DNA of 64,000 bases from a virus, in IMG/VR virus record IMGVR_UViG_3300031963_000020, positions 64,001 to 128,000 of that record, one strand, 5' to 3'. Of this stretch, positions 20,831-47,889 are shown piece after piece (positions within the stretch are counted from its first letter, which is position 1; each line of letters starts with the position of its first letter). The notes below the pieces were generated by a model that saw nothing but the letters and a program-made list of their open reading frames with translations, did no database searches and had not been told where the DNA came from. The position numbers and the translations under genes were made by a program.

Positions 20831-23800
20831 ATGAGCTTACCAGATATTACTGTTGTTATACAAAAACCAGATGTAGTTGTCAGAAACTTAGGTGGTTCAG
20901 GATCATTTTTAAATGTCGCTGATTCCGCAGTAAGTTCTTCTTATGCATTGACTGCAAGTTATGCATTAAATGGTGGTGGTGGAGGTGGTGGTGGAGATGG
21001 TGCAACAGGTCCAACTGGTGCAACTGGTCCTCGTGGTGCAACGGGTGTTGCAGGCTCTCCAGGTGGTGCAACGGGACCAACAGGTCCATCAGGTAGTCAA
21101 GGTGCAACAGGTATTCAAGGTTTAACAGGTGCACAAGGTGCAACAGGTGTACAAGGTACCACAGGTCCTACTGGTGCGCAAGGACCAACTGGTAGCACTG
21201 GTCCACAAGGTATTCAAGGTGTCACAGGTCCAACTGGTGCAATTGGTCCACAAGGTGTAACAGGTAGTACAGGACCACAAGGTATTCAAGGTGTTACTGG
21301 ATCTACTGGTCCTATCGGTCCACAAGGTGTAACAGGTAGTACAGGACCACAAGGAATCACGGGGCCAATAGGTGCAACTGGTCCGGAAGGTCCAACAGGT
21401 GCATCTGGTCCAACTGGTAGTACAGGTCCTACGGGTATTCAAGGTATTCAAGGACCAACTGGTAGTACAGGTCCGCAAGGTGATACAGGTCCACAAGGTT
21501 CAATTGGTCCAATAGGCCCAACAGGTCCAACTGGTAGCACAGGTCCACAAGGACCACAAGGTGATATTGGTATTACTGGTGCAACAGGTATCCAAGGACC
21601 AACAGGGTCAACAGGACCGCAAGGTATCCAAGGTGTCACAGGTCCAACAGGTCCAATTGGTCCTGGATTAAATATTAGTGGTAGTTTACCAGATACGGGT
21701 AGCCTTCCTCCATCGGCGCCAACTGGTTCTGCATTTATTATTGGTCAAGATTTATGGGTATATAATGGAACTTCTTGGGTAGACGTTGGTGATATCTACG
21801 GACCATCGGGTTCTACAGGCCCAACAGGTCCACAAGGTACCACAGGTCCAACAGGCCCAATAGGTCCACAAGGTGTAACAGGCAGTACAGGCCCAACAGG
21901 ACCAGAAGGCCCAACAGGTGCATCTGGTCCATCTGGTAGTGTTGGTCCACAAGGTCCAGTCGGTCCAATAGGTCCAACAGGTCCAACTGGTAGTACAGGT
22001 CCACAAGGACCAGAAGGTAACCAAGGAGAAACAGGTCCAACAGGTGTACAAGGTGCAACAGGTATTCAAGGGCCAACTGGTAGTACAGGTCCACAAGGTA
22101 TAACAGGTCCAACAGGACCAATTGGTGTAACTGGACCAACAGGTGTTGCAGGACCAACGGGTTCAACAGGTCCAGCAGGTACTGCTGGACCAACAGGTAG
22201 CACAGGTCCAATTGGTCCAGAAGGACCAACGGGTAGTACAGGACCAACAGGTCCACAAGGTGTAACAGGTAGTACAGGTCCAGTAGGTTTACAAGGTGTT
22301 ACTGGTTCTACAGGCCCAACAGGTCCACAAGGTGTAACAGGCTCAGAAGGTGCAACTGGTCCAATTGGTGTTACTGGTGCAACTGGTGTTACAGGTTCCA
22401 CAGGTCCAACAGGTCCAGTAGGTCCAACAGGTAGCACAGGTCCAACAGGTCCACAAGGAACCACGGGTCCAACTGGTGCAACTGGTTTACCTGGTGACAT
22501 CTATTCTACAACCAGTAGCACATCACTTTCTATCGGAACTGGTTCAAAAACATTAACTATTGCAACGGGACTTGCATATAGTATTGGTCAATCTGTTATT
22601 ATCGCATTCGATAATAGTAACAAAATGGAAGGTAGTGTTACCTCATACGATAGTGGAACAGGTCAATTAGTAGCTAATATTACAACGGCTACTGGTTCGG
22701 GTACATACACAGCATGGCAAGTAAGTTTGGCAGGTGCACCAGGACCAGCAGGTGTTACAGGTCCAACTGGTCCTGCAGGTCCAATTATTGCAGGACTCGT
22801 CAGTAGTTCTGCACAATACCCAGGATGGGTCACTAGTTCCGCACAAATTGATTATAACGCAATCACTAATAAGTTGAGTGGTGTAATATCCTCCTCAACT
22901 CAGTTTAATGCATTAACTGGTACATCTGCCTCATATTCAGCTACCGCATCGTTGTCTACAGCAGTAAGTGGTGGAACAGAAGATTATATACCACTTTGGT
23001 CATCAGCAAATACACTTACACGTAGTAGATTATACCAAACTGGTTCTAGTATTATATTTGGTGGAACGACATTCTATGATGAAACCGCACCAGATATCTT
23101 TGGCTTGTACGGTGGTATAACAGACTCATTTAATTTAATCACTGCGCACGCAATAATTGACAACTACTTACAAATAAATGTTCGTAACTTAAGTACAGGT
23201 TCTTCTGCATCATCAGATATAGTTGCGGTTAAGAGACTAGGAACAGAAACATCTGGCTTCATTGATATGGGTATCAATGATGACAATTATGTTGGTACGG
23301 AAATTTATGATGTTGCGGGTGATGCATACCTTTATACAGTAGGTGGAAATTTAGTAGTAGGTTCTGCAAGTGATACAGGAAGTGTAGTATTATTTACTGG
23401 CGGTGATACTCCATCGGATAAAAAAGTAGAATTACGAGCAAATAATTTACACGACATCACTGGTAGTCTTACAGCAACACAAGGATTTACTGGTTCGTTA
23501 TCTGGTATAGCAACGACCGCATCATTTGCAACAGCAGTTAGCGGTGGAACTACAAACTATATTCCATTCTTTAATACAGCAAACACGTTATTTAGAAGTA
23601 GATTATATCAAACTGGTTCTAGTATTATATTTGGTGGAACTACATTCTTTGACGAAACCGCACCAGATATCTTTGGTTTATATGGTGGTCTAACAAATTC
23701 ATATAATTTAATCACTGCACACGCAACAATTAACAATTACTTACAAATCAATGTTCGTAACTTAAGTACAGGTTCTTCTGTATCGTCTGACATAGTTGCA

Positions 23801-26659
23801 GTAACACCATTAGGTACAGAAGATTTTGGTTACATTGATATGGGTATCAATAGTGATAACTACGTTGGTAATAGAATTTATGATTTACCAGGAGACGGTT
23901 ATCTGTATACCACAGGTAGTAATTTAGTAGTTGGTACATCAACCGCAAATAGTAACGTTACTATTTTCGCAGGTGGTGACACTTACGCCAATCGTAAGTT
24001 AACATTAAAAGCAAGTAATCAACACGAAATAACAGGTAGTGTAAATATCAGTGGTAGTATATTACCATCAAATGATTCTGTATTTGACCTAGGTTCACCA
24101 TCATTAAAGTTTAGAAGTTTATATCTTTCTGGTTCTACTTTATATCTTGGCACGCTCGCAATCTCTGATAATAATGGTACATTATCTATAACACCATCGG
24201 GGTCATCGACTCTTTCACCTGTATCTGGTGCATTTACTGGGTCGTTCCTTGGTAATTTGATCGGAAATGCTAATACAGCAACAACAGCATCGTTTGCAAC
24301 CACAGCATCATTTGCACTAAATGCACAAAACGTACCACTCGGTACAGTATCAAGTTCAGCACAATATCCTGGTTGGGTCACAAGTTCTGCGCAAATTGAT
24401 TATAATAGTATACAAAATAAGTTAAGTGGTGTAATATCTTCATCAACACAATTTAACTCATTAAGTGGTACATCAGCATCATTTGCAACAACCGCAAGTT
24501 ATGTAGCAGGTGCAGCAAGTGACTGGGCATCATTAGCAAATAAACCAGCAGATATCGTAAGTAGTTCTACCCAAGTCAAGGCGTTCTTACCTGGTGGCAC
24601 TGTAAGTGCATCGGCACAATATCCTGGTTGGGTAACCGCATCATCACAAATTGATTATAATAATATTACCAACAAATTATCTGGTGTAGTTTCCGCATCA
24701 GCACAAGTAGTACCATTACTTCCTGGTGGAACCGTTTCAAGTTCAGCACAATACCCAGGATGGGTCACTAGTTCCGCACAAATTGTGGTGCAAAATACCA
24801 CTGGTATTGGTGCGTTAGCAACAACTGGTTCAAATACATTTGTTGGTAATCAAGTAATTAGTGGTTCATTAACTACCACCGCAGATACAATGACCTTCAA
24901 TGGGTCGATGGCCGTATCGGGAACACTTTCATTAACTGGTAGTTTAAATGTATTAAACGGTGGATTTACTGGTTCATTAACGGGTAGTGCAACTACAGCA
25001 ACATCGGCGTCATTTGCAACTACCGCAAGCGCAGCAACCAGTATAACATTTATACCAGCAACGTCATCATTTGCATTAACAGCAAGTTATGTTCCTGGTG
25101 CAGCAAGTGATTGGAATTCTGTAGCAAATAAACCAGCAGATTTGGTCAGTAGTTCTACCCAAGTCAAGGCGTTCTTACCTGGTGGAACTGTTTCAAGTTC
25201 CGTACAATACCCAGGATGGGTAACCGCATCAAGTCAAATTGACTATAACTCAATTCAAAATAAGTTAAGTGATGTTGTATCAAGTAGTGCACAAGTTCAA
25301 CCACTACTTCCTAACGGAACAGTATCAAGTTCCGCACAATACCCAGGATGGGTAACCGCATCAAGTCAAATAGAATTAAATAGTATTACAGGAACCACAT
25401 TTGCAACAGCAAACTTTACTTTCCCACAAAACTTAACTGTCGCTGGAACACTTACCGCTCAAGAAATACAAACCGAATACGTAACATCATCTATTATTTA
25501 CGAATCTGGTTCAACTAAGTTCGGTGATACAGCAGACGATACACATCAATTTACAGGTTCATTAAGCGTTCTTGGAACAATTAGTGGTGGATTGGTATTA
25601 CCAGCAGGAACTGTAACAGCATCATCACAAATTGATTATAACTTAATTCAAAATAAATTAAGTGGTGTGGTAAGTAGTTCATCACAAATTCAACCACTAC
25701 TTCCAGCAGGAACAGTATCAAGTTCTGGTCAAGTAGATGTTCGTAACACAACTGGTATTTCAACACTTGCAACTACTGGTTCAAACACATTTACCGCAAC
25801 ACAAACAATAATTGGAAACGTATTCTTAAGTTCATCGTTCCCATTAGTTTATAATAACGATAACACTAACAATATGTTGTTTGGGTTCTTTGATGGTAGC
25901 TCCATTTACGGTGCATATTATCAAACATTTGGAAATAACTACACGGCACTAAATCAACGTGGTGGTGCAGAGTTTGTATATGATATTAGAAATAATAGTG
26001 GTGCAAACTTCCATATCGCATCATTTAATGGTGCAACTTGGACTGAAAAGTTTAGAGTAGATGATAACGGAGCACACGTAACTGGTTCATTGGTATCAAC
26101 TGGTGGTATTACTGGTTCATTACTTGGAACAGCAAGTTTCGCAACTACAGCTTCATTTGCATTAGCAACCGCAGGAACCGTAGAAAATGCAAATACAGCA
26201 TCATATGTAGCATATACAAATATTGATGGTAAACCAACACTAGTATCTGCATCATCACAAATAGATTACAATTCTATTACGAATAAGTTGAGTGGTGTAT
26301 ACAGTAGTTCGGCATTCGCATCACCAAACCAAGGTACTGTAAGATTAACATTAAATGGTGTTCAGTTAACTGACGTTGATTTGGGTGTACAAACATCTGA
26401 TACCCCAACATTTGCTGGAGTAAGTAGTTCAAATCATATCACTCCAACCGCAGATAATACTTATAACTTGGGTGCACCTGATAAGAGATGGGCAAACATA
26501 TACACGGGTGACTTAATATTATCTAATGAAGGTTCTTCAGGTAATACCGTAGATGGAACAACAGGTAACTGGACTATTCAAGAAGGTGAAGAACATCTAT
26601 ACATTATCAATAACAAGTCTGGTAAGAAGTTTAGATTTATGTTATCGGAGATTAACTAA
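20831..26659 (+). CDS. Long tail fibre protein with collagen-like region, duplicated beta domain and SSSAQ repeats
   Basis: Long G-X-Y (GPT/GST) tracts; tandem ~200-aa domain; [11 protein letters not shown] repeats; C-terminal WANIYTGDL...WTIQEGEE module. Confidence 0.85.
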
Positions 26660-36228: not shown

Positions 36229-36960
36229 ATGTTAAGATTTTTTCCGTATAGAACATTTAGTTCGTCATTTGCATTCACGGGGTCCGCAGCACAAACTGCA
36301 TCATTCGTGCTGTCTGGAACCACCGCATCGTTTTCACTAACTGGTGGTGGTCCAACTGGTCCTGTTGGGCAAACGTCGGTAGTACAAGGTATTACAGGTG
36401 TATCAGGACCAACAGGTATAGGTCCAACAGGTCCACGTGGCACCACAGGTCCAACAGGCCCAAGATCAGCAACAGGTCCAACAGGACCAACTGGTATTAC
36501 AGGACCAACTGGCGCTACAGGAGCAACTGGAGCTGCATCAACTGGTCCAACAGGACCAATAGGAGTTTCAGGTAGTACAGGTCCAACAGGACCAACAGGT
36601 GCAACAGGTATTATCGGTATCACAGGTGCAACTGGTCCGACAGGAGCAACAGGTCCAAGTGGTCCAACAGGTATTCAAGGTATTGCAGGGCCGCAAGGTG
36701 TTACTGGTGCTACGGGTCCAACTGGTGCAATTGGTGTCGCAGTATCAGGTATCCAAGGTCCAACAGGTGTAACAGGGCCGTCAGGTCCATTTGGTTCTTC
36801 TGGTCCACAAGGTACAATTGGTGTTACAGGTCCAACAGGACCAACAGGTGCACAAGGAACCGCATTTACAGGGCCAACAGGTGCAACAGGTGCAACTGGT
36901 GCTACGGGTCCAACAGGAGCTGTGGGAGCTACTGGTCCAACTGGTGCGAACACACCATAA
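36229..36960 (+). CDS. Collagen-like protein 1 (FFP N-terminal motif)
   Basis: MLRFFPY...SSSFA then ~200 aa of G-X-Y. Confidence 0.85.
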
Positions 36961-36975
36961 TAGAGAGAAAGTGTT

Positions 36976-38619
36976 ATGACGTTTAAATTTTTTCCGTTCG
37001 GTGTACCAACTACTAGTTCGTTTGCAATAGGAGTCGGAGTAACAGCTACCGCATCTATTGCAATTAATAGTGGTTCTGCGTTCTCTACGGCGTCATACGC
37101 ACTGGGTGGGTCCACGGGTGCCACAGGTCCAAGTGGTCCGCAAGGAGCAACAGGTCCAACAGGTCCAACGGGTCCAACAGGCATTTCTGGATCAACTGGT
37201 GTTTTGGGTACTTCTGGTTCAACAGGACCACAAACGTCAGGGTCAACAGGTCCGACTGGACCAAGTGGTATTACTGGAGCAACAGGTCCAACAGGACCAA
37301 CTGGTATTACGGGTTCTACGGGTGTAATAGGTATTACAGGACCATCTGGTATTCGTGGTGCAACAGGTGCAACTGGAGCAACAGGTCCAACAGGCCCAAC
37401 AGGTAGTGTTGGTATAACTGCTGGTATCATAGGTGTATCAGGTGTTACAGGCCCAACTGGTTCATCTGGTCCAACTGGTGTACAAGGAAGCACGGGTCCA
37501 ACTGGTGTGGGGCCAACTGGAGCAACAGGTGCAACGGGTCCATCTGGTTCAGCAGGACCAACAGGACCAGTGGGACCAACAGGAGCAACTGGTGCAATCG
37601 GACCATCTGGATCTTCTGGTCCAAATACATTCGGAATAGTTGGTATAACTGGAGCAACTGGTCCTACTGGTGTTATCGGACCAACGGGACCACAAGGAAA
37701 CGCTGGTCGAGCTGTATTTTTCATAACAGGATCATGTAATCAAACACATTCCGATATCACCGTTCCTCACAGTGACGTTGCAGCAAGTCATACTGATATC
37801 GCAGCAGCACACACAGATACTACCATTAATGCATCACATAGTGACATTGTTACCACAACACCAGCATCACATACAGATAATACTACACCATTCGTAAATA
37901 CGACTATTAACGCATCACATAGTGACACAACAATTAATGCATCACATAGTGATATTGCGCATAGTAATATTACAATTAACGCCGCACATACTGATAATAC
38001 CACACCATTTAATAATATCGCATTTACTAATATTGCAAAATCACATACGGATATTTCACACAGCAATATATCACATACGAATATCGGAGCAGCACATACA
38101 GATAATACTACACCATTTAATAATATCGCGTTTAGTAATATTGCATTCACAAATACCACTATACCATTTAGTAACATAGGATTTAGTAATTCGTATACTC
38201 CACATTCAAACATTGCTAAAGGTGCAGTTCATAAAGACGATTACGGTCCACCAGCACATACAAATAGTACAACACCACATAGTAATATTGCATTCTCAAA
38301 CACAGGATTCTCTAACTCGTATACTCCACATACAAACGTGGGTCATACGGATATTGCGTTCTCTAATACAGGATTTAGTAATAGTTATACTCCACATACT
38401 AATATTGGTTCAGCTCACACCAACACTACAATCAACGCATCACACACAGATAATTACACGGCACATCAAAACGTAGCGCATGGAGATATACCGTTCGTGA
38501 ATAGTTATACACCGGCACAATGTTCGCAATGTCCTGGTGGAGATCCGTCTGAATGTGATTCGTTCTGTGAATGTTATCCAAACTGTGGTTGCTTCGGTAA
38601 TACGTGCATCGGTATATAA
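36976..38619 (+). CDS. Collagen-like protein 2 fused to (H/F)-x-(N/D) array and 8-Cys C-terminal domain
   Basis: MTFKFFPFG; ~200 aa G-X-Y; 38 (H/F)x(N/D) motifs; CSQC...[13 protein letters not shown]...C tail. Confidence 0.85.
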
Positions 38620-38645
38620 TAAATGTTTATAATAGGGAATAAATA

Positions 38646-39422
38646 ATGCCAGGTCCAACACATACAAATATAGGCCACTCCGATATAGCGTTTGAGAATG
38701 TCTACGCTGCGCATACTGATTTTACACAAAATCCGGCACACACTGACAATACCACACCATTTAATAATATTGCAGCAGCTCATACCAATATCGCTCATAG
38801 TAATCAGGCATTTCTTAATACTTCATTTAGTAATATAGCAAAATCACACACCAATGTATCACATACAAATATTGGGCATACAGACGGTACGGCAGCACAT
38901 ACAGACAACTATTCACCAGCATCGCATTTAGATAATACTAGTGCACACTCAAATATCGCAGCAGCTCATACAAATATTGCACATAGTAATATAGCAACAT
39001 CACACACAGATATATCTCACTCAAATATATCTCATACTAACATCGGTGCATCACACACTGACAATACCACACCATTTAACAATATTGCGTTTAGTAATAT
39101 TGGGTTCGTAAACACCACTATTCCACATACTAATATTGGTCACACTAATATAGGTGCAGCGCATTCAGATAATACAACACCAGCAGATCACAGCGATATC
39201 GCATTTAGTAATATTACGATTAACGCAAGTCACACGGATATTACAATCAACGCAAGTCACACGGATATTGCAGCATCACATACCGATACTACCATTAACG
39301 CATCACACACGAATATAGTAAGTACCACTCCAGCTTCACATACCGACAGTACAACACCATTTACAAATAGTACTACACCACACTCAAATGTTGCGGCCGC
39401 TCACAGTAACGCATTCCTATAA
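38646..39422 (+). CDS. (H/F)-x-(N/D) repeat protein, mirror partner of 36976..38619
   Basis: 38 motifs; spacing is the reverse of the upstream array at 34/37 intervals. Confidence 0.85.
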   Translation: MPGPTHTNIGHSDIAFENVYAAHTDFTQNPAHTDNTTPFNNIAAAHTNIAHSNQAFLNTSFSNIAKSHTNVSHTNIGHTDGTAAHTDNYSPASHLDNTSAHSNIAAAHTNIAHSNIATSHTDISHSNISHTNIGASHTDNTTPFNNIAFSNIGFVNTTIPHTNIGHTNIGAAHSDNTTPADHSDIAFSNITINASHTDITINASHTDIAASHTDTTINASHTNIVSTTPASHTDSTTPFTNSTTPHSNVAAAHSNAFL

Positions 39423-39428
39423 TACACT

Positions 39429-40292
39429 ATGTCGCAATTTTTTCCACTAGGTACACCAACAACTGCAAGTACAGCACTTATCAGTAGTTTAGCATTTACC
39501 GCAACGTATGCTGTGAATGTGAATGTGTTGACAGCATCATATGGTCCTGGACCAACTGGACCACAAGGTGATAAAGGACCAACAGGACCACAAGGTGCAA
39601 CTGGATTGGCAGGGTCAGGTTCTACAGGACCAACGGGCGCAACAGGTCCAACTGGGCTAACTAGTTCAGGTCCAACAGGTCCAACAGGACCGCAAGGTGT
39701 AATCGGTATTACTGGTATTACAGGCCCAACAGGTGTCACAGGTTCTACAGGCCCAACAGGTCCAATAGGAATTACTGGTGTAATTGGTGTTACAGGTATT
39801 TCTGGTGTAACTGGTATTGCTTCATTTACTTCGGGTTCCACAGGCGCTACTGGGCCAACTGGAGCAACAGGTGCTACTGGTGTGGTGGGTATTACTGGTG
39901 CAACTGGTATTATTGGAATCACAGGACCAACAGGATTGACTAATTTGGTGGGCATTACAGGTCCAACAGGTCCAATAGGATTACCAACCACGGGTTCTAC
40001 AGGTCCAAGTGGTCCACAAGGAGCAACTGGTGTTGTAGGTACTGGTGGTGTTTCTGCAGGAGCGGCGGCATCTGGAGTCATCGGTATTACGGGTATTACT
40101 GGTGTACAAGGTACCACAGGACCGCAAGGAAGTCGTGGTGTGGACGCCGAATGTCCAGCAGGATTTGTAACCTGTACGGAAGGGGCTCCGTCATCGGGGT
40201 CAAATACATATACAAACCCAAATAGTAGTATATATTCTGTGGTTTGTGCCGCAAGACCAGTAGGTTGTTTAGGAACATTTACGTGTGTATAA
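39429..40292 (+). CDS. Collagen-like protein 3 with Cys-containing C-terminal domain
   Basis: MSQFFPLG; ~200 aa G-X-Y; CPAGFVTC...C...C...C. Confidence 0.85.
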
Positions 40293-40364
40293 CGTTATTT
40301 TATAAGTAAAGGTATGGAAAATACTACTTATATAGAGGTAGACGTTATGTGGAGAGTTTAATAT

Positions 40365-41558
40365 ATGGCTAAAGCACCTGGTAGTATTTGGGTAGATGGT
40401 GAAACCTTTAGATTTATTGACGCAACTGGAAACGAGTACTATTACACTGGTACTGCGGGGTCTAGTCCTGCGGGAGCTAAGGCTGGTTCAATTTGGGTAG
40501 ACGGAAATGATTTTCATTATATTTCTGCTACTGGTGTTGACCGTACAATTGCATACACCGATTTGGGTGTAGCAGCGGGATCAAAACCAGGTTCAGTATG
40601 GGTGCAAACCACATTCTGGCAATGGATATCATCGGCAGGAAACGCTCGTCGTGGTCACACCGACGTAACAGCAGCACACACCGACAATACCACCCCAGCA
40701 TCTCACACAGATATTGCATTCGTTAATACTACAATTAACGCGGCACACACAGATACTACAATCAACGCAAGCCATACAGATATAGCAAAAGCACACACGG
40801 ATAACACAACACCAAATAGTCACACGGACAACACTACTCCGTTCAATAATATTGCGTTCGTTAATACTACAATCAATGCCGCTCACACGGATAATACAAC
40901 GAACGCAAGCCATACAGATATAGCAAAAGCACACACGGATAACACAACACCAAATAGTCATACTAACAGCTATACTCCACATAGTAATGTCGCACACACC
41001 AATATTGGTGCAGCGCACACGGACAACACTACTCCGTTTAATAATATCGCATTCACTAACACCTATATTGGTAACAGTCACACCAACAGTTATACTCCAC
41101 ACAGTAATGTCGCACACACCAATATTGGTGCAGCGCACACGGACAACACTACTCCGTTTAATAATATAGCATTTACCAATTCATATACAGGTAATAATCA
41201 CACTAACAATTACACACCACACACCAATATCGGTCACAGTAATATCGGTCATACTAATATCGGATTTAGTAACATAGCATTTAGTAATATTGGATTTACC
41301 AATACAACTATCAATGCATCACACACAAATATCAGTCATAGTAATATTGGTGTATCGCATACAAATATCGGTCATAGTAATGTTGGATTTAGTAATTCGT
41401 ATACTGGACACACAAACATTGCACATAGTAATATAGGCGTATCGCATACAAATATTGGACATAGTAATGTTGGATTTAGTAATTCGTATACAGGATTTGT
41501 AAATTCTTACACACCACAAAATCACACAAATTCGTATCAGGGTGGTCCTTCAGCCTAA
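40365..41558 (+). CDS. Protein with three GS(I/V)WV repeats and a 44-motif (H/F)-x-(N/D) array
   Basis: KAPGSIWVDG, KAGSIWVDG, KPGSVWVQ; array from 40656; SD GGAG. Confidence 0.85.
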   Translation: MAKAPGSIWVDGETFRFIDATGNEYYYTGTAGSSPAGAKAGSIWVDGNDFHYISATGVDRTIAYTDLGVAAGSKPGSVWVQTTFWQWISSAGNARRGHTDVTAAHTDNTTPASHTDIAFVNTTINAAHTDTTINASHTDIAKAHTDNTTPNSHTDNTTPFNNIAFVNTTINAAHTDNTTNASHTDIAKAHTDNTTPNSHTNSYTPHSNVAHTNIGAAHTDNTTPFNNIAFTNTYIGNSHTNSYTPHSNVAHTNIGAAHTDNTTPFNNIAFTNSYTGNNHTNNYTPHTNIGHSNIGHTNIGFSNIAFSNIGFTNTTINASHTNISHSNIGVSHTNIGHSNVGFSNSYTGHTNIAHSNIGVSHTNIGHSNVGFSNSYTGFVNSYTPQNHTNSYQGGPSA

Positions 41559-41578
41559 TGCATGAAAAGGAATAATAT

Positions 41579-42484
41579 ATGAATCATAGTAATTCGACAA
41601 CACCAGCATCACATACGAACATCGGTGCATCACATACTAATATCGGGTTTAGTAATGTGGGGTTTAGTAATAGTTATACTCCATTTTCAAATGTTGGGTT
41701 CGGTAATGTCAATGCATCACATACTGATATTGGATTTAGTAATGTGGGATTTGCAAATTCTTACACACCATTTAGTAATGTAGGGTTTTCCAATAGTTAC
41801 ACACCAAATTCACACACTAATATTGCACACAGCAATATTGGTCATAGTAATATTGGATTTAATAATATTGCGTTTAGTAATATCGCATTTGGTAATATTG
41901 CAAGAACACATACCGATAACACTACAAATGCAAGTCATACCAACATTGGTCATACAAATATTGGTGCTGCACACACGAATAACACCACACCATTTAATAA
42001 TATAGCGTTTAGTAATATTGCGAAGGCACACACAGATAACACTACAAATGCAAGTCATACCAATATCGCGCATACAAATATTGGTGCTGCACATACGGAT
42101 AACACCACACCATTTAATAATATAGCGTTTAGTAATATTGCGAAGGCACATACGGACAATACTACAATTGCCTCACACACGGACAATTACACTCCGCATA
42201 CAAACACTACAATTAATGCGGCACATACCGACAATACAACACCAGCATCACATACGGATATCGCACATACTAATATTGCTGCAGCACATACGGACAATAC
42301 TACTAACGCAGCCCATACGGACAATTACACCCCGCATACAAACACTACAATTAATGCCGCACACACGGATACCACAATCAACGCAAGTCATACCGACATT
42401 GCGCACACTAATACAACAATTAATGCTGCACACACGGATAACACCACACCACATAGCGACCAACCAGTATTTGTTGGTCCATAA
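41579..42484 (+). CDS. (H/F)-x-(N/D) repeat protein, exact mirror partner of 40365..41558
   Basis: 44 motifs; 43/43 spacings are the reverse of the upstream array; SD AAGGA. Confidence 0.85.
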   Translation: MNHSNSTTPASHTNIGASHTNIGFSNVGFSNSYTPFSNVGFGNVNASHTDIGFSNVGFANSYTPFSNVGFSNSYTPNSHTNIAHSNIGHSNIGFNNIAFSNIAFGNIARTHTDNTTNASHTNIGHTNIGAAHTNNTTPFNNIAFSNIAKAHTDNTTNASHTNIAHTNIGAAHTDNTTPFNNIAFSNIAKAHTDNTTIASHTDNYTPHTNTTINAAHTDNTTPASHTDIAHTNIAAAHTDNTTNAAHTDNYTPHTNTTINAAHTDTTINASHTDIAHTNTTINAAHTDNTTPHSDQPVFVGP

Positions 42485-42491
42485 TTAGGGC

Positions 42492-42520
42492 TTGACAAGT
42501 GGTGTGCGGTGTTGTATATT
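42492..42520 (+). promoter_or_regulatory. Sigma70-type promoter for the radical SAM operon
   Basis: TTGACA-17 bp-TATATT, 29 nt before the ATG; SD GAGG. Confidence 0.75.
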
Positions 42521-42549
42521 ATAAAATGATTTATTAATCACGAGGTTAT

Positions 42550-43869
42550 ATGACTATTGAATTAGAACCAGTTGGTGTAGTATGTAATTTAAGTTGCCCG
42601 TATTGTTACGAACATCCCATGCGAGATGCGGGTAATTTCCGACATAAAACATATTCCGTTGAAAAAATGTTAGAAGGTCTTGCCAAAGAAGGTGGTAATT
42701 TTACCCTCTTTGGTGGTGAACCATTATTAACTGATATTGACGATTTAGAAACTATTTTTAAGTGGGGGTTTGACCGATATGGATTTAATGGTATTCAAAC
42801 AAATGGTGTTTTAATTACTGACCGCCACATAGAAATGTTTAAGAAGTACAGAGTTCACGTCGGAATATCACTTGATGGTCCTGACGAAATGAACGACACG
42901 CGTTGGGCAGGGTCATTAGAAAAGACCAGAGAGGCTACCCGCAAGTCATTTGAAGCTATTAAAAAGTGTCTTGACAACAAGCTCTCACTTGGTTTAATTA
43001 TTACTATCCATAAGAAGAACGGATTACCAAAATATCGTGAACGTTTCAAGGCATGGATTAAAGAACTTCAGTCGTGGGGTGTTGATGGAGCAAGACTTCA
43101 TCCACTAGAGATTGACCATAGTTCTGTTGGTGAAACATTAGCTCTTACACCAGAACAAAATATTGAGTTCCTATTAGATATGTGGGACTTTGAAATCAGT
43201 GAACTAAATGTTCCTGGTAAGAAATCATTTCAGTTTGATATCTTCCGTGACGTAGAATATATGTTGCGTGCAGACGATGCAAACGCAACCTGTACATTTA
43301 TGACTTGTGACCCATATACCACGCATGCGGTGCAAGGTATTGACTCGCAAGGTAATAAAGCAAACTGCGGTCGTGGTAACAAAGAAGGTATTAACTGGAT
43401 TAAAGCCGATGTTGACGGATTTGAACGTCAGATGGCACTATATAATACACCACAAGAACATGGTGGATGTCAGGGGTGCCGATTCTTTATTATGTGTAAG
43501 TCACACTGCCCAGGTACAGGTGCAGATATGGACTGGAGAAATAGAACGGATACCTGTATGAATTGGAAGGTAGCGTTTAGTATCTATGAACGAATGATGG
43601 TTGAACGTGGTGAGATGCCATTATCTCTAGACCCAAAATTAAAGAGATATGAAGATATTTTGATGTATGGTTATAGTAGAGGTGCAGAACTTAGATTAGA
43701 ACACATTAAAAAGTATCTTGACCCAAATATTGGATTTGATATTGAAAGATACATCCAATCATATTTGATGAACCAAGCTATGGGTGGACACAAGCCACAC
43801 GCAGACCATACAGATGAAACAGGAAGATACGCATTAGAGTTTAAAGAGAAGTACGGATATTTACCTTAA
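42550..43869 (+). CDS. Radical SAM enzyme with SPASM-type domain (putative peptide/protein maturase)
   Basis: CNLSCPYC (CxxxCxxC), FGGEPLL, QTNG, ISLDG; C-terminal CTFMTC, NCGR, CQGCRFFIMCKSHC...C auxiliary-cluster cysteines. Confidence 0.92.
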   Translation: MTIELEPVGVVCNLSCPYCYEHPMRDAGNFRHKTYSVEKMLEGLAKEGGNFTLFGGEPLLTDIDDLETIFKWGFDRYGFNGIQTNGVLITDRHIEMFKKYRVHVGISLDGPDEMNDTRWAGSLEKTREATRKSFEAIKKCLDNKLSLGLIITIHKKNGLPKYRERFKAWIKELQSWGVDGARLHPLEIDHSSVGETLALTPEQNIEFLLDMWDFEISELNVPGKKSFQFDIFRDVEYMLRADDANATCTFMTCDPYTTHAVQGIDSQGNKANCGRGNKEGINWIKADVDGFERQMALYNTPQEHGGCQGCRFFIMCKSHCPGTGADMDWRNRTDTCMNWKVAFSIYERMMVERGEMPLSLDPKLKRYEDILMYGYSRGAELRLEHIKKYLDPNIGFDIERYIQSYLMNQAMGGHKPHADHTDETGRYALEFKEKYGYLP

Positions 43870-43887
43870 TATAAAGAGGATACGTAG

Positions 43888-44286
43888 ATGATACCAGGAT
43901 TACACGCAGACCACGTTGACACATCGGGTGCATATGGTCAAAAATTTGAAGTCGTAAAAGACTTGTTAGAAAAAGGAATGTTGAAAGAAATTCCAGAAGA
44001 ATTCCGTGATAAAGGAAATACTTCCGAAGAAGTTCCGGTTATTACTAATTCACAAACAGTTGTTGGTAATCAGCAATCGGGATGGGATATGTCTCGTGAC
44101 CATGCCGACCACGTTGACGAAACTGGTCGTTATGCACAATCGTATATGGAACGATTTGGTTCGGATTCCTTAAATAATAACGAAATTTCACAAGGAACTA
44201 CAGAACAACAGCAAGATACTGGTAATTCTTGGAAGTCTTTCTTGAAGAAGATTATTGCAGAAGAAAAGAGTAAGTTGAAGGTTTAA
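43888..44286 (+). CDS. HADHxD-repeat accessory protein
   Basis: HADHVDTSGAYG and HADHVDETGRYA, matching the radical SAM C-terminal HADHTDETGRYA. Confidence 0.75.
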   Translation: MIPGLHADHVDTSGAYGQKFEVVKDLLEKGMLKEIPEEFRDKGNTSEEVPVITNSQTVVGNQQSGWDMSRDHADHVDETGRYAQSYMERFGSDSLNNNEISQGTTEQQQDTGNSWKSFLKKIIAEEKSKLKV

Positions 44287-44305
44287 TTTAAACAACGAAG
44301 GGGTT

Positions 44306-45787
44306 ATGCAAAGAATAAAGCATGTCTTGCCTGATTGGACTCGGGTGCAGTGGACTTCTATAGAAAATAGAAACAAATACGAACCTATCATTGCGTCTAT
44401 CAATAACGCATGGAAACAGATTGAACGTATGTCGGTTGTTCACGATATTCGTCCATCTTCACTAGATATATTATCACCAGAAGAACTCATAAATTTAACT
44501 GCGGAATACGAAAAACATGGAGTACTCGTAGTTCCTATTGGTAAAGAAGGAAAAGCAGGAACTTACTCGTCTACAAGTACACCATATAATGGTGGTGATT
44601 ACAATATTCGTGTTGTATTCACAAAGTCTGAAGCTATAGCAGATGAATGGTTTAATATCTGGCAAGCAGAACCCCGCATTCGTGACCGTGAGGCTGGTCG
44701 TTTACTTGGGTATCCTACCTGCTGCACCAATCATTTTATGAAGTATTGGGTAGACCAGGAATTTGTTGATACTACGTGGACGATGGCAGCGGAAAATATG
44801 CAGTTAAATGATGACGATGAAACGCATCGTACTATTCATATTAAGGCAGATACTCCACCTGAAGCAAACATAATGTGGCGTTGGCAAGGTGTACGATTGG
44901 TATCACATCTTCCGTGTTCGTTTGATTGCAAGGCAACAGAAGAACTTGGTATGAAGATGGCAGAACTTGGTCGTACACTTGGGTTTGAAAAAGAAGTAAA
45001 TTGGATATATGAATTACTTTCGTGGCCTGTTGAATGGTCAGCACTGCATGGTATCGCAGAAATCCGTACACCAATCAACAAGATTTCATCCAGAACTGAT
45101 ATGACCCCGTGGAAGTATGTGGTACAGAAGCATGCACACGAATATCCTATTGATGGTATGTCTGGTATAACGTATCCGTATAATCAAAAGAAAATTAAAG
45201 TCAAACCCGTCACAAAAACTATCTCGTTCGCTAAATCTCTTGAAGATACTTCCGTATGGGAAGAAAACGGATTTAGTAATAAGGAAGCTATGGATCACTT
45301 CCACCAAGTTATCATTGACGCAATCGGGGATATGAAATATATTCCTGGTGGTAATGTCCTCGACCTCGGTTGTGGAAATGGTGTCTTGTTAGGTCGTGTA
45401 GTTGGAGACAGATTTGATCTCATCCCACACGGTGTTGAAGCAGACCGTCAACGTTGTATGTCCGCAGCAACTACCATCCATTGGGGTGTCTTTACAATGG
45501 GTAGCATCTTTGACCTTAATACGTGGAAGGAAGATACATATAGTTTGGTACTTTTGATGCCAGGCAGACTTCTTGAAACCACACGTGTAGTATCAGAACA
45601 AGTGCGTAAGCAACTCTATGACAAGACAGACCTTGTTCTTATCAACCTAACTTGTGATTGGACACAACAATATGGCTCGATTGAGAATATTATGAAGGTC
45701 ACAGGTCTTGACCAAGAATGGGAACCAGCAGGTAAGTTAATCCATCGTCAAGATGATATGGCACAACTTTTCAAGCGTAAGGTGTAA
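44306..45787 (+). CDS. Cys-motif domain (DUF483-like) fused to class I SAM-dependent methyltransferase
   Basis: RLLGYPTCC and SHLPCSFDC motifs; VLDLGCGNG motif I followed by GVE. Confidence 0.7.
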   Translation: MQRIKHVLPDWTRVQWTSIENRNKYEPIIASINNAWKQIERMSVVHDIRPSSLDILSPEELINLTAEYEKHGVLVVPIGKEGKAGTYSSTSTPYNGGDYNIRVVFTKSEAIADEWFNIWQAEPRIRDREAGRLLGYPTCCTNHFMKYWVDQEFVDTTWTMAAENMQLNDDDETHRTIHIKADTPPEANIMWRWQGVRLVSHLPCSFDCKATEELGMKMAELGRTLGFEKEVNWIYELLSWPVEWSALHGIAEIRTPINKISSRTDMTPWKYVVQKHAHEYPIDGMSGITYPYNQKKIKVKPVTKTISFAKSLEDTSVWEENGFSNKEAMDHFHQVIIDAIGDMKYIPGGNVLDLGCGNGVLLGRVVGDRFDLIPHGVEADRQRCMSAATTIHWGVFTMGSIFDLNTWKEDTYSLVLLMPGRLLETTRVVSEQVRKQLYDKTDLVLINLTCDWTQQYGSIENIMKVTGLDQEWEPAGKLIHRQDDMAQLFKRKV

Positions 45788-45788
45788 T

Positions 45789-46019
45789 ATGACAGAAGAA
45801 ATCAAAGAAGCACCAGTTCCAATAGCAATTCGTCAATTAGTTGATTTACATAACACCCGTATCCGTGAATACCAACAACGTTCATTACAAGAACTTCAAG
45901 ATGCAAACATTGAACTAATGTTAATGATGGGTTTAAGCCCACAAGACGGATGGCGATTAGATATGGAAACAATGAAATACATTAAAGTTCCAACAGATGG
46001 AAATACACAAGTCGGCTGA
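45789..46019 (+). CDS. Small hypothetical protein (start moved to ATG 45789)
   Basis: Closely coupled to flanking genes; helical. Confidence 0.6.
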   Translation: MTEEIKEAPVPIAIRQLVDLHNTRIREYQQRSLQELQDANIELMLMMGLSPQDGWRLDMETMKYIKVPTDGNTQVG

Positions 46020-47889
46020 ACACGTAATATTTACGTGGGGTAGGTTCAAAGGGCACTCCTTAGCACACGTTGCAAGGAGTGTTCCTTCGTATTTGGAATG
46101 GATGTCTGGTCAAGATGGTTTACCTGAGCAATGGAGAATTGCAGCAGCAAAAACCTTGATGAACGAAGATATTAGTGAACTTGACCTTCCCAGAACGAAC
46201 AATCCAACTATCTCATATAAAGATTTACCCAAGCAATCAAGTGATAAGGTAGAGGTGTTATTAGTTGATAATAAAACCGCTGCAATCATTATGCCATACG
46301 ACAAAGTGATGTTGGCAAAGTTTAAGTATGAAATTGATGGTCGCAAATGGAACAACGATGAGAAGCATTGGGAGTTTCCAGTTGTGCATCTTCCAAAACT
46401 ATTTACGATATTCACCAATATTAAGTGTGATAAGAAAGTATTAGATAAAGTTGAGGAACTTAAATCTCGTAGACAAGACCTCGACGAAATCCGTAGTCAA
46501 GAAGATACAGACTTCCAAATCAAGGGGATGCAACTCAATCTGTATCCATATCAGAAAGTTGGTGTACAGTTCGTGGATAGAGCAGGTGGTCGTTGTTTGA
46601 TTGCAGACGCACCTGGCTTGGGTAAGACGGCACAAGCGATTGGATATGCACAACATCACAATCTCAAAACACTTATTGTCTGTCCATTATCTGTTGTAGT
46701 CAACTGGCAACGTGAAATCAAAAAGTTTACTGGTAAGAAATCTACCATTTGGGATAGTAAACATTATTACGGAGAGTTGGATAATCAGTTCCACATCGTG
46801 CATTATGATGCGGTGGCTAAGATTAGTAAATCACTTCGTGAACAAAAGTTTGACCTCTTGGTGTGTGATGAAGCAACTTACTTAAAGAATAGACAAACCA
46901 TCAGAGCAAAAAGTATCTTGGGGTCGTGGAAAGAAAGACGAAAGTATCCTGGGATTAAAACCAAGTATTCTATCTTCTTAACGGGAACACCAGTAATGTC
47001 TCGTCCAATCGAAGCATTTAGTTTATTAAACTTTTTAGATAAAGAACGATTTAATAACTTTTACCATTTCGTCGAACGCTATGGTGGATGGAAAGGTGAT
47101 GCTCCACGAAATCTCCAAGACTTGCATGACCGTACAAAAGATTTGGTCATCCGTAGAAAGAAAAGTGAGGTGCTTACAGAACTCCCACCAAAGCAACGAA
47201 ATGACCTGTATGTAGAACTTACCAAAGAAGAAAAAAAGGAATATCAAGAACTACTCAAAGAAGTCTTTGGTAAATGGAAAATGGACGGTAAACCCTCGGT
47301 CACCCATATGCCAAAACTCCAAGCATTCCTTATCCAAAAGAAAATGCCACGATTAATGGAAATGATTGACGAGTTCTTGGATAACGACAGGTCAATCTTG
47401 ATATTCAGTAACTATCTTGGCCCCCTTCGTTTCCTGACGGAACATTATGGGGACAAAGCCGCCCTCTTGACGGGTGATATGAACAGAGATAAACGGCAGG
47501 AAAGTATTGATAGATTAACCAGCGGAAAAGCTAAAATCGGATGTTTTAGTCTCTTGGCGGCGGGTATGGGTATCGACGGATTACAGAAAGTCATAGATAC
47601 CGTAGTATTTCTCAACTGTGATTGGGTTCCTGCAAACCACGAACAAGCAGAGGACAGAACCCATCGTATCGGTCAAACCTCCCAAGTCCAAGCCTATTAT
47701 ATGTTATGCGAGGACACCATAGACGAATATATGCGGGACATTCTCAAAGAGAAACAACAGGTCGCAGACCTTATTGTGGACGGAGCATTGGTCACTCCTG
47801 ATAGTAATAAATCATTTTTTAAGGAATTTGTCCGCAGAATTAGTTCGGTATATAATACCCATTTTACCGATGAAAATATAGAAGATTGA
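45997..47889 (+). CDS. SNF2-family helicase/annealing ATPase (HARP/SMARCAL1-like)
   Basis: ADAPGLGKT, DEA, LTGTP, IRRKK, QAEDRTHRIGQ; N-terminal FTWGRFKG...YLEW module. Confidence 0.88.
   Translation: MEIHKSAEHVIFTWGRFKGHSLAHVARSVPSYLEWMSGQDGLPEQWRIAAAKTLMNEDISELDLPRTNNPTISYKDLPKQSSDKVEVLLVDNKTAAIIMPYDKVMLAKFKYEIDGRKWNNDEKHWEFPVVHLPKLFTIFTNIKCDKKVLDKVEELKSRRQDLDEIRSQEDTDFQIKGMQLNLYPYQKVGVQFVDRAGGRCLIADAPGLGKTAQAIGYAQHHNLKTLIVCPLSVVVNWQREIKKFTGKKSTIWDSKHYYGELDNQFHIVHYDAVAKISKSLREQKFDLLVCDEATYLKNRQTIRAKSILGSWKERRKYPGIKTKYSIFLTGTPVMSRPIEAFSLLNFLDKERFNNFYHFVERYGGWKGDAPRNLQDLHDRTKDLVIRRKKSEVLTELPPKQRNDLYVELTKEEKKEYQELLKEVFGKWKMDGKPSVTHMPKLQAFLIQKKMPRLMEMIDEFLDNDRSILIFSNYLGPLRFLTEHYGDKAALLTGDMNRDKRQESIDRLTSGKAKIGCFSLLAAGMGIDGLQKVIDTVVFLNCDWVPANHEQAEDRTHRIGQTSQVQAYYMLCEDTIDEYMRDILKEKQQVADLIVDGALVTPDSNKSFFKEFVRRISSVYNTHFTDENIED

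Follow-up and report, generated by a model that had tools for sequence, protein, structure and literature searches.

A radical SAM/SPASM enzyme gene beside mirrored aromatic-x-Asp/Asn arrays in putative phage tail-fibre genes: a possible maturation cassette

Does a radical S-adenosylmethionine (SAM) enzyme of a phage modify the fibre proteins that are encoded next to it? The question is raised by a stretch of 64,000 nucleotides of viral DNA, hereafter the window, which comprises bases 64001-128000 of the 148-kb IMG/VR record IMGVR_UViG_3300031963_000020 (CheckV completeness estimate 72%), and in which the gene of a radical SAM enzyme with SPASM-type cysteines follows four genes filled with motifs of the type Omega-x-(D/N), where Omega is an aromatic residue. 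A sequence-only reading of this DNA had proposed that the enzyme installs modifications on these arrays. The coupling of the enzyme, a DUF483-like partner and carriers of Omega-x-(D/N/K) motifs proved to be independent of lineage, so that an enzyme–substrate relation is the most economical explanation, and when all of the chemistries that the enzyme might perform are taken together, such a relation appears likely from the sequence comparisons described below. The cassette consists of eight open reading frames (ORFs), g1–g5, the enzyme gene, g7 and g8, all on the plus strand and all with clean translations:

g1: 36976..38619, plus strand; collagen-like N-terminal half, an array of 38 H/F-x-N/D motifs and a Cys-rich C-terminal tip
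g2: 38646..39422, plus strand; 38 motifs and nothing but array, the putative antiparallel register partner of the g1 array
g3: 39429..40292, plus strand; collagen-like fibre protein, its small C-terminal domain containing Cys, between the two array pairs
g4: 40365..41558, plus strand; array of 44 motifs behind an N-domain of about 97 residues that has three GS-x-W-V repeats
g5: 41579..42484, plus strand; 44-motif array with the conserved C-terminal end HSDQPVFVGP, the putative antiparallel partner of g4
Radical SAM/SPASM enzyme: 42550..43869, plus strand; 439 amino acids, with the C-terminal tail HADHTDETGRY
g7: 43888..44286, plus strand; 132 amino acids, in which the enzyme-tail motif occurs twice (HADHVDTSGAYG and HADHVDETGRYA)
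g8: 44306..45787, plus strand; fusion of a DUF483-like N-domain (GYPxCC ... HLPCSFxC) with a class I SAM methyltransferase

Motif arrays and their mirrored spacing

Counted on the translations, the pattern [HF]-x-[ND] occurs 39, 38, 45 and 44 times in g1, g2, g4 and g5, respectively; one FGN in the Cys-rich end of g1 and one FID in the N-domain of g4 lie outside the arrays, and the arrays proper therefore hold 38+38+44+44 = 164 motifs, exactly the figure and the distribution that the sequence-only reading had given. Its statement that Phe motifs always take the form F-x-N is likewise true of every array Phe, the sole FID being that of the g4 N-domain. All His residues of g1, g2 and g5, and 31 of the 32 in g4, lie within H-x-D/N. 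Composition-preserving shuffles gave 7–10 motifs per protein (maximum 19) against the 38–44 observed, a four- to fivefold excess, and the four array ORFs alone reach a density of 0.07–0.15 motifs per residue, about 10–20 times the background of 0.007 in the 148-kb record. The spacing from motif to motif is 5, 7 or 9 residues. Since g3 has no His and no motif, it is no candidate substrate and is merely a neighbour in the fibre module. A pentapeptide-repeat β-helix, which had been raised by units such as H-T-N-I-G, was rejected because the profiles remain below cut-off (Pentapeptide_4 18.7 against 38 and Pentapeptide_2 19.7 against 26.4) and the spacing is a mixture of 5, 7 and 9.

The spacings of g4 read from the N- to the C-terminus are those of g5 read from the C- to the N-terminus at 43 of 43 intervals, whereas the forward reading agrees at 18 of 42, and g1 and g2 mirror each other at 34 of 37. 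Related loci, to which handles beginning with L are given, include further gene pairs with mirrored spacings (L003, L004, L005 and L007), and the same symmetry is found within single chains: the spacing is palindromic at 101 of 101 positions in a single-chain relative of 869 amino acids (L009:2680-5289) and at 39 of 39 in a collagen-array protein (L010:6510-8186), while in L005 the equivalents of g1 and g2 form one chain of 537 amino acids (L005:4871-6484) that is palindromic at 36 of 38. The conserved C-terminal end of the g5 type is also present in single-chain relatives. From the mirrored and palindromic spacings we infer that the arrays fold as register-matched antiparallel ladders, formed either as hairpins or as pairs of two gene products. 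Split ladders (two mirrored genes) and fused ladders (one palindromic chain) interchange among related phages, a natural experiment which argues that the two halves pair in an antiparallel manner.

The mirror is present at the protein level only, which excludes a duplication of DNA as its source. An inverted repeat of the DNA was rejected in particular, as the two genes share a strand and His, Thr and Asp codons, when reverse-complemented, would not encode the motif, and so was a single gene broken into g4 and g5 by error, as the split is kept in L003, L004, L005 and L007. The motifs that would face one another across the ladder co-vary. Phe stands opposite His, and Phe–Phe occurs in one of 245 rungs, the chance of zero Phe–Phe rungs being 0.0001–0.013 per pair; F-x-N is opposite H-x-N in 121 rungs and opposite H-x-D in 20, and H-x-D is opposite H-x-D in 56 and opposite H-x-N in 40. 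A complex prediction with g4 residues 1–240 and g5 residues 148–301, supplied as alignments, had a score of 0.01 and returned no answer. Cys-rich segments (8–9 Cys in about 32 residues) are situated at the tip of the ladder in the window (38520-38619, with nine Cys in the final 32 residues of g1), in L012:1391-1936 and in L003:5102-5842, either at the hairpin turn or at the free ends of a gene pair (the C-terminal end of g1; the N-terminal end of the partner chain elsewhere), and may be disulfide-knotted receptor-binding tips.

Co-occurrence in phages and bacteria

A search with the enzyme gave 22 viral loci (enzyme identity 41–89%). By our tally arrays are present in 18 of the 18 with enough upstream flank, down to an enzyme identity of 41%, and the four loci without an array (L015, L016, L019 and L024) are at contig ends where the array gene is expected. 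The divergent viral loci contain a single carrier of 195–228 amino acids with a GSxW N-domain, 12–17 motifs and mostly an end of the HSDQP-x-FVG type, together with a homologue of g8. An exhaustive profile search with the g4 N-domain then gave 495 cluster representatives, where a word-based protein search had given one relative. Among the best 150 of these 495, position 1 of the motif is occupied by H (2202), Y (352), F (166) or W (65) and position 3 by D (2371) or N (414), position 2 is highly variable (S, T, G, A, D, N, V and Q), and the C-terminal sequence H-x-D-x-P-x-x-[VI]-G recurs. The enzyme is present in 24 of 24 array-bearing N-domain loci with flank, most of which also have the DUF483-like gene, whereas neither gene is present in any of ten N-domain loci without an array. 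The co-occurrence across phage genomes that the sequence-only reading had proposed as a check was thus found, with one exception (P0212), which is weighed below.

The GSxW N-domain also stands at the C-terminal end of array-less phage proteins that end in ...GNERYxEG (L057, L059, L060, L066, L067, L072, L073, L075 and L076), and none of these nine loci has the enzyme. Two paralogous enzymes occur in some phage loci (L023/L061, L053, L055 and L064), where the arrays mix His with Tyr or Phe; L023 has two enzymes plus two DUF483 paralogues. The enzyme paralogues may divide the work by aromatic residue.

The cassette is also found in cultured Thermus phages, the enzyme homologues of which in Cumys, phiMa and phiLo are 45–52% identical to that of the window. 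Cumys gp13 has the N-domain, 54 of 54 His residues in H-x-D/N and the end HADQPVRG, and its gene follows baseplate and tail-collar-fibre genes and directly precedes those of the radical SAM protein gp12 and the DUF483 protein gp11. In phiLo, gp136 and gp137 contain 104 and 75 motifs and are encoded near the enzyme/DUF483 pair gp142 and gp141. A Limnochordales prophage encodes a 178-amino-acid H/Y-x-D carrier followed by the enzyme, DUF483 and a separate methyltransferase, and a T4-like phage has a carrier of 345 amino acids that consists almost entirely of P-F-x-N/D units.

The bacterial sample comprised 12 loci with true homologues of the enzyme (39–50% identical), to which a separate look-up in Mucilaginibacter added a thirteenth (L027). 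In all 12 the DUF483-like gene is adjacent or fused, and in L077 and L080 the enzyme and DUF483 form one protein. A clear H-x-D carrier is present in eight, and three others are variant or weak (L083, L079 and L086), L079 and L086 having about two motifs each. The carriers are peptides of 77–136 amino acids with 7–13 H-x-D motifs, proteins with twin-arginine signals and one N-domain array pair, and the short peptides are encoded directly 5′ of the enzyme gene (H-x-D peptides or twin-arginine/lipoprotein-signal proteins at L077:9486-9749, L080:9719-9952, L081:9353-9673, L078:9556-9966, L087:12829-13302, L082:7908-8579 and L084:9106-9558). As the enzyme/DUF483 pair lies beside bacterial H-x-D proteins, the family is not phage-specific. 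In Fulvivirga marina the gene of an enzyme homologue with 42% identity is directly preceded by that of a protein of 1044 amino acids (L083:6841-9975), the C-terminus of which, LPHLKHIKAPHIKHIKAPHIKHVKLPHVKVF, has about seven H-x-K instead of H-x-D. A small protein ending in DHVDFHVDF adjoins the enzyme in the cyanobacterial locus L079, and six H-x-D motifs end a 1034-amino-acid protein in L027. An NCBIfam scan of the bacterial H-x-D peptides and Cumys gp13 gave no family match.

The enzyme, its partners and the proposed chemistry

The enzyme has the sequence CNLSCPYC (CX3CX2C) at residues 12–19, of which C12, C16 and C19 are invariant in 36 homologues, and matches the Pfam profile Radical_SAM (PF04055) with 58.3 bits against a cut-off of 29.5 (E value 1.4e-15), as a member of this superfamily does. 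In the same homologues C248, C253, C273, C307, C310, C316 and C336 are invariant and C320 is nearly so, and C307-x2-C310-x5-C316-x3-C320 gives the CX2CX5CX3C pattern of a SPASM enzyme; the Pfam scan lists Fer4_12 alone and no match to a SPASM profile. The profile match and the conserved cysteines confirm that a radical SAM enzyme with SPASM-type cysteines follows the array genes. Because CX3CX2C begins at residue 12, the enzyme has no N-terminal RRE-like (peptide-recognition) domain. An AlphaFold2 model (predicted local distance difference test 84, predicted template-modelling score 0.83; 52–70 on the former scale for the C-terminal tail) has as its closest solved folds anSME (TM 0.59/0.70), followed by ChlB and, third, the sactisynthase CteB. 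Its superposition on anSME includes the C-terminal domain, and the best sequence match in the PDB is also anSME (E value 3.5e-10, residues 3–320). The four highest NCBIfam scores are those of anSME (72 bits), DynA (69), YhhB (65) and AmcB (58), and three of the four (DynA, YhhB and AmcB) are aromatic cross-linkers.

Tandem H-x-D repeats, of types such as HGDHTD and PHGDHYD, form the C-terminal end of most enzyme homologues, with examples in the following coordinates:

Window 43780-43869: tandem H-x-D tail of the enzyme
L053:11136-12806: enzyme with tandem H-x-D tail
L055:7260-9203: enzyme with tandem H-x-D tail
L064:2921-4942: enzyme with tandem H-x-D tail

Some tails exceed 200 residues, and homologues that are paired with Phe-rich or short arrays often have no tail. 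The tail could mimic a substrate, provide a strand for docking or bind a metal. The sequence HADHxDxxGxY occurs once as the enzyme tail and twice in g7, which is found solely in the close clade (enzyme 74–100% identical). Homologues of g8, in contrast, adjoin the enzyme in nearly all loci. The N-domain of g8 matches DUF483 (PF04467) by a small margin, with 27 bits against a cut-off of 25 over residues 123–217, and the Atlas feature neighbours of g8 carry PF04467; in this DUF483-like domain C139 and C208 are invariant and C140, H201 and C204 are nearly so (GYPxCC and HxPCSxxC). The C-domain is a class I SAM-dependent methyltransferase, with the SAM loop VLDLGCGNG, a VIA-align match to NodS (Z score 14.3, root-mean-square deviation 3.3 over 160 residues) and many further methyltransferases, and all of the Foldseek and VIA-align matches of the g8 model are to this C-terminal part. 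In several lineages a methyltransferase is fused or adjacent.

By analogy with triceptide synthases, the cassette would mature tail-fibre proteins, the substrates being long Omega-x-(D/N) arrays in which Omega is His or Phe in the window and, among relatives, Tyr or Trp as well. An array would fold back on itself or pair with the product of the neighbouring gene, forming a ladder on the collagen stalk (g1/g2) or on the GSxW domain (g4/g5). The enzyme, acting with g8 and in the close clade also with g7, would recognise the motif itself without a leader peptide and would place many modifications on each chain. The 5′-deoxyadenosyl radical would take a Cβ hydrogen from the third residue (Asp/Asn), and this Cβ would then be joined by a C–C bond to the ring of the aromatic residue two positions upstream; the resulting triceptide-type cyclophane, repeated about 160 times over four proteins, would give rigid, heat- and protease-resistant fibres. 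As in triceptide systems, Omega1-X2-X3 motifs lie next to the enzyme gene, here 164 in four adjacent genes and with interchange of H, Y, F and W, and the motif grammar (an aromatic residue, any residue and a residue with a β-methylene) fits that of the triceptides. Links from His C2 to the Cβ of X3 have been published for HAA, HNR, HTK and HAS (PMC11499958; PMC12912966). The three-residue cyclophane is our best guess for the bond formed in the arrays, and a phage maturation cassette that places triceptide-like cyclophanes on fibre arrays has, on this analogy, slightly less than an even chance of being correct. The broader proposal is more tentative and falls somewhat below even: that the enzyme and its DUF483-like partner covalently modify tens to hundreds of sites on Omega-x-D/N ladders, which would become stapled, register-coded antiparallel fibres in phages, the same chemistry being applied to secreted H-x-D proteins and short peptides in bacteria.

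Several observations weigh against cyclophane formation, or against the coupling as a whole. The scores of the triceptide-synthase profiles lie far below their cut-offs (YhhB 65 against 445, XyeB 37.8 against 450, GrrM/OscB 48 against 310, FxsB 45.1 against 370 and AmcB 58.2 against 425), and the matches to cyclophane families span the radical SAM core alone, approximately residues 11–157. The best solved relative is an oxidase, anSME, and its profile TIGR03942 also scores below cut-off (71.8 bits against 349.45); the locus has no C/S-x-P/A-x-R sulfatase motif and no sulfatase gene. The scores for the HXS enzymes are 28.3 against 370 (HxsB, TIGR03978) and 15.1 against 267.9 (HxsC, TIGR03977). 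By these scores the enzyme represents an uncurated family within the SPASM group: its placement by hidden Markov models against cyclophane synthases and anSME, which the sequence-only reading had called for, falls below every cut-off, with anSME and aromatic cross-linkers as the top matches. The claim that the enzyme installs modifications on the arrays is thus partly supported. The co-occurrence in divergent phages and bacteria and the H-x-D tails speak well for the enzyme–array link, and the motif grammar fits too, but the enzyme is a member of no curated cyclophane family. Furthermore, the array protein P0212, on a 15-kb contig, has no radical SAM Pfam match within about 7 kb, no carrier was found in one of the 12 bacterial loci (L088), and the co-variation between strands, for which a ring within the motif would not suffice as an explanation, hints at a part for both strands. 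This co-variation, with one Phe–Phe in 245 rungs and at least one His in the others, suggests that both strands are involved in the reaction or in packing, and an alternative that keeps the enzyme and its putative array substrates but assumes another chemistry has to be considered: crosslinks between the strands, epimerisation at Cα, β-oxidation or hydroxylation of Asp/Asn, or an addition of carbon resembling the +8 Da of HxsA, after which the methyltransferase of g8 might methylate the product. The enzyme–array link would hold equally in this case, several lineages have a methyltransferase, fused or as a neighbour, and anSME, which provides both the closest fold and the best full-length profile match, oxidises and does not cross-link. 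The sole H-x-S repeat protein matured by radical SAM enzymes that has been studied, HxsA, shows +8 Da and not −2 Da (PMC13128918), which also counts against a cyclophane. Position 2 of the motif, however, is too variable to be a target, a conserved aromatic residue at position 1 with a Cβ-H2 residue at position 3 is the exact grammar of triceptides, and the bacterial carriers with 7–13 motifs need not form ladders; we regard another chemistry as unlikely, though a serious contender.

The arrays might instead be unmodified ladders, metal-binding or hydrogen-bonded, while the radical SAM/DUF483 pair has another target, for example DNA, a nucleotide or a cofactor. In most members of the family the motifs are almost all His-x-Asp, residues that are classical metal ligands, twin-arginine signals, typical of folded or cofactor-loaded export, are present in some bacterial carriers, and a hairpin with a tip domain resembles the needle of the T4 long tail fibre, gp37, in which the chain runs to the tip and back and His-x-His iron sites are regularly spaced. 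No radical SAM enzyme is known to be associated with gp37, and unlike in gp37 the motif here is H-x-D/N, in which His is replaceable by Phe, Tyr or Trp. An unmodified ladder would leave unexplained the close tracking of the arrays by the enzyme (24 of 24 against 0 of 10) and the H-x-D tails of the enzymes, and the retention of the enzyme in loci with Phe-x-Asn-rich or His-x-Lys arrays argues against a purely metal-binding ladder. DNA as the target was suggested for the 'rSAM module' of Cumys and phiMa in a paper in Viruses in 2024, a further point against modification of the arrays, and its authors report homologues of the radical SAM/DUF483 pair near deazapurine DNA-modification genes in cyanobacteria (PMC11437467); the single cyanobacterial locus examined here (L079), however, has the small protein ending in DHVDFHVDF beside the enzyme. 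Unmodified arrays with a pair that acts elsewhere are distinctly improbable in our estimate. A small product resembling a peptide that is made by the ribosome and modified after translation (RiPP) might also be made from g7 or the enzyme tail, with the fibre arrays as bystanders that share the motif. The sequence HADHxDxxGxY is common to both, and the bacterial H-x-D peptides of 77–136 amino acids are encoded directly upstream of the enzyme as classical precursors are, but g7 is limited to the close clade, to which the pairing of enzyme and array is not, and many enzymes without a tail and without g7 still have arrays; a small product of this origin is very improbable. Modification of the arrays by the enzyme, by cyclophane formation or otherwise, is therefore the reading retained in what follows.

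Genomic setting and relation to known systems

The genes surrounding the cassette indicate where its products may act. The following genes lie upstream of g1 and downstream of g8:

20831-26659: collagen-like/tail-fibre protein, 1942 amino acids
26659-31167: collagen-like/tail-fibre protein, 1502 amino acids
31281-34637: collagen-like/tail-fibre protein, 1118 amino acids
36229-36960: collagen-like protein, 243 amino acids, upstream of g1
45997-47889: helicase (PHROG DNA helicase, E value 1e-111), between the cassette and the genes for baseplate hub and tape measure

Fibre-like genes occupy about 25 kb in this phage. With fibre genes upstream, and a baseplate hub and a tape-measure-like protein following the helicase downstream, the cassette is placed in a tail/fibre module. 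Pfam Collagen (PF01391) matches g1 and g3 with 83.6 and 84.7 bits (E value 8e-24 for g1), and both proteins also match PHROG tail-fibre families, as expected of collagen-like phage tail fibres; from this synteny and these profile matches we infer that the array proteins are located in the virion. A helicase is oddly placed inside a tail module, and the same position is kept in L007, L009 and L012. Long ORFs on the opposite strand overlie the collagen and array genes; most likely they are no genes but a consequence of the repetitive codon composition:

36675-37724, minus strand; ORF over collagen/array genes
39401-40117, minus strand; ORF over collagen/array genes
40629-41138, minus strand; ORF over collagen/array genes
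41810-42151, minus strand; ORF over collagen/array genes

A megablast search of the 8.8-kb stretch against the phage collection gave no match.

The enzyme class and the proposed chemistry are of kinds that are already known. Like the triceptide synthases XyeB, GrrM/OscB, FxsB, YhhB, HaaB, HtkB, ChlB and MicB, among which ChlB forms three-residue cyclophanes (PMC12912966), the enzyme is a radical SAM/SPASM protein associated with tandem aromatic-x-X3 motifs. The substrates of those synthases, however, are short precursors with a leader, one to three or a few motifs and proteolytic release, whereas here a chain has 38–104 motifs in fibre proteins of 250–870 amino acids that lack an obvious leader, Asp and Asn predominate at X3, and a DUF483-like partner appears to be obligatory. 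Like anSME, the enzyme has a complete SPASM domain but no RRE domain, and the target of anSME is likewise a folded or large protein and no RiPP; unlike the present case, anSME oxidises one Cys or Ser in C/S-x-P/A-x-R. In the HXS anti-phage system the His-x-Ser repeats of HxsA are matured by the radical SAM enzymes HxsB and HxsC with HxsD, giving +8 Da (PMC13128918). The cassette resembles HXS in that a repeat protein with His-x-small-residue motifs is, or here would be, the target of radical SAM chemistry, the protein itself being the end product in HXS. What sets HXS apart is the number of repeats (five), its function in bacterial defence, its pair of radical SAM enzymes and its +8 Da product. 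The closest precedent in phages is the 'rSAM module' of Thermus phages, described as three genes (radical SAM, DUF483 and a third protein of unknown role) conserved in phages and prophages (PMC11437467). The gene set is the same, and the third protein is here a fibre protein with a GSxW domain and an H-x-D array; the text of that paper contains neither the word 'histidine' nor a mention of repeats. A literature search for radical SAM enzymes together with tail-fibre or virion crosslinks gave no account of the system beyond that paper, and the link to the arrays, the hairpin register, the interchange of aromatic residues, the enzyme tails and the versions with bacterial peptides and secreted proteins appear to be new.

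If the proposal is correct, the peptide chemistry of radical SAM enzymes would reach beyond small secreted natural products and into viral fibres, at a very high density of sites; RiPP-type maturation by a radical SAM enzyme would then be seen for the first time in structural proteins of a virus, and the fibres would be a new kind of virion material. The proposal would explain a conserved phage module for which the present annotation is 'unknown' or a guess at DNA modification, and it would open a new family of substrates, for which the N-domain alone has 495 cluster representatives, as well as a leader-independent and highly processive cross-linking enzyme for protein engineering. As the cultured, non-pathogenic Thermus phages Cumys, phiMa and phiLo carry the module, the system is directly testable.

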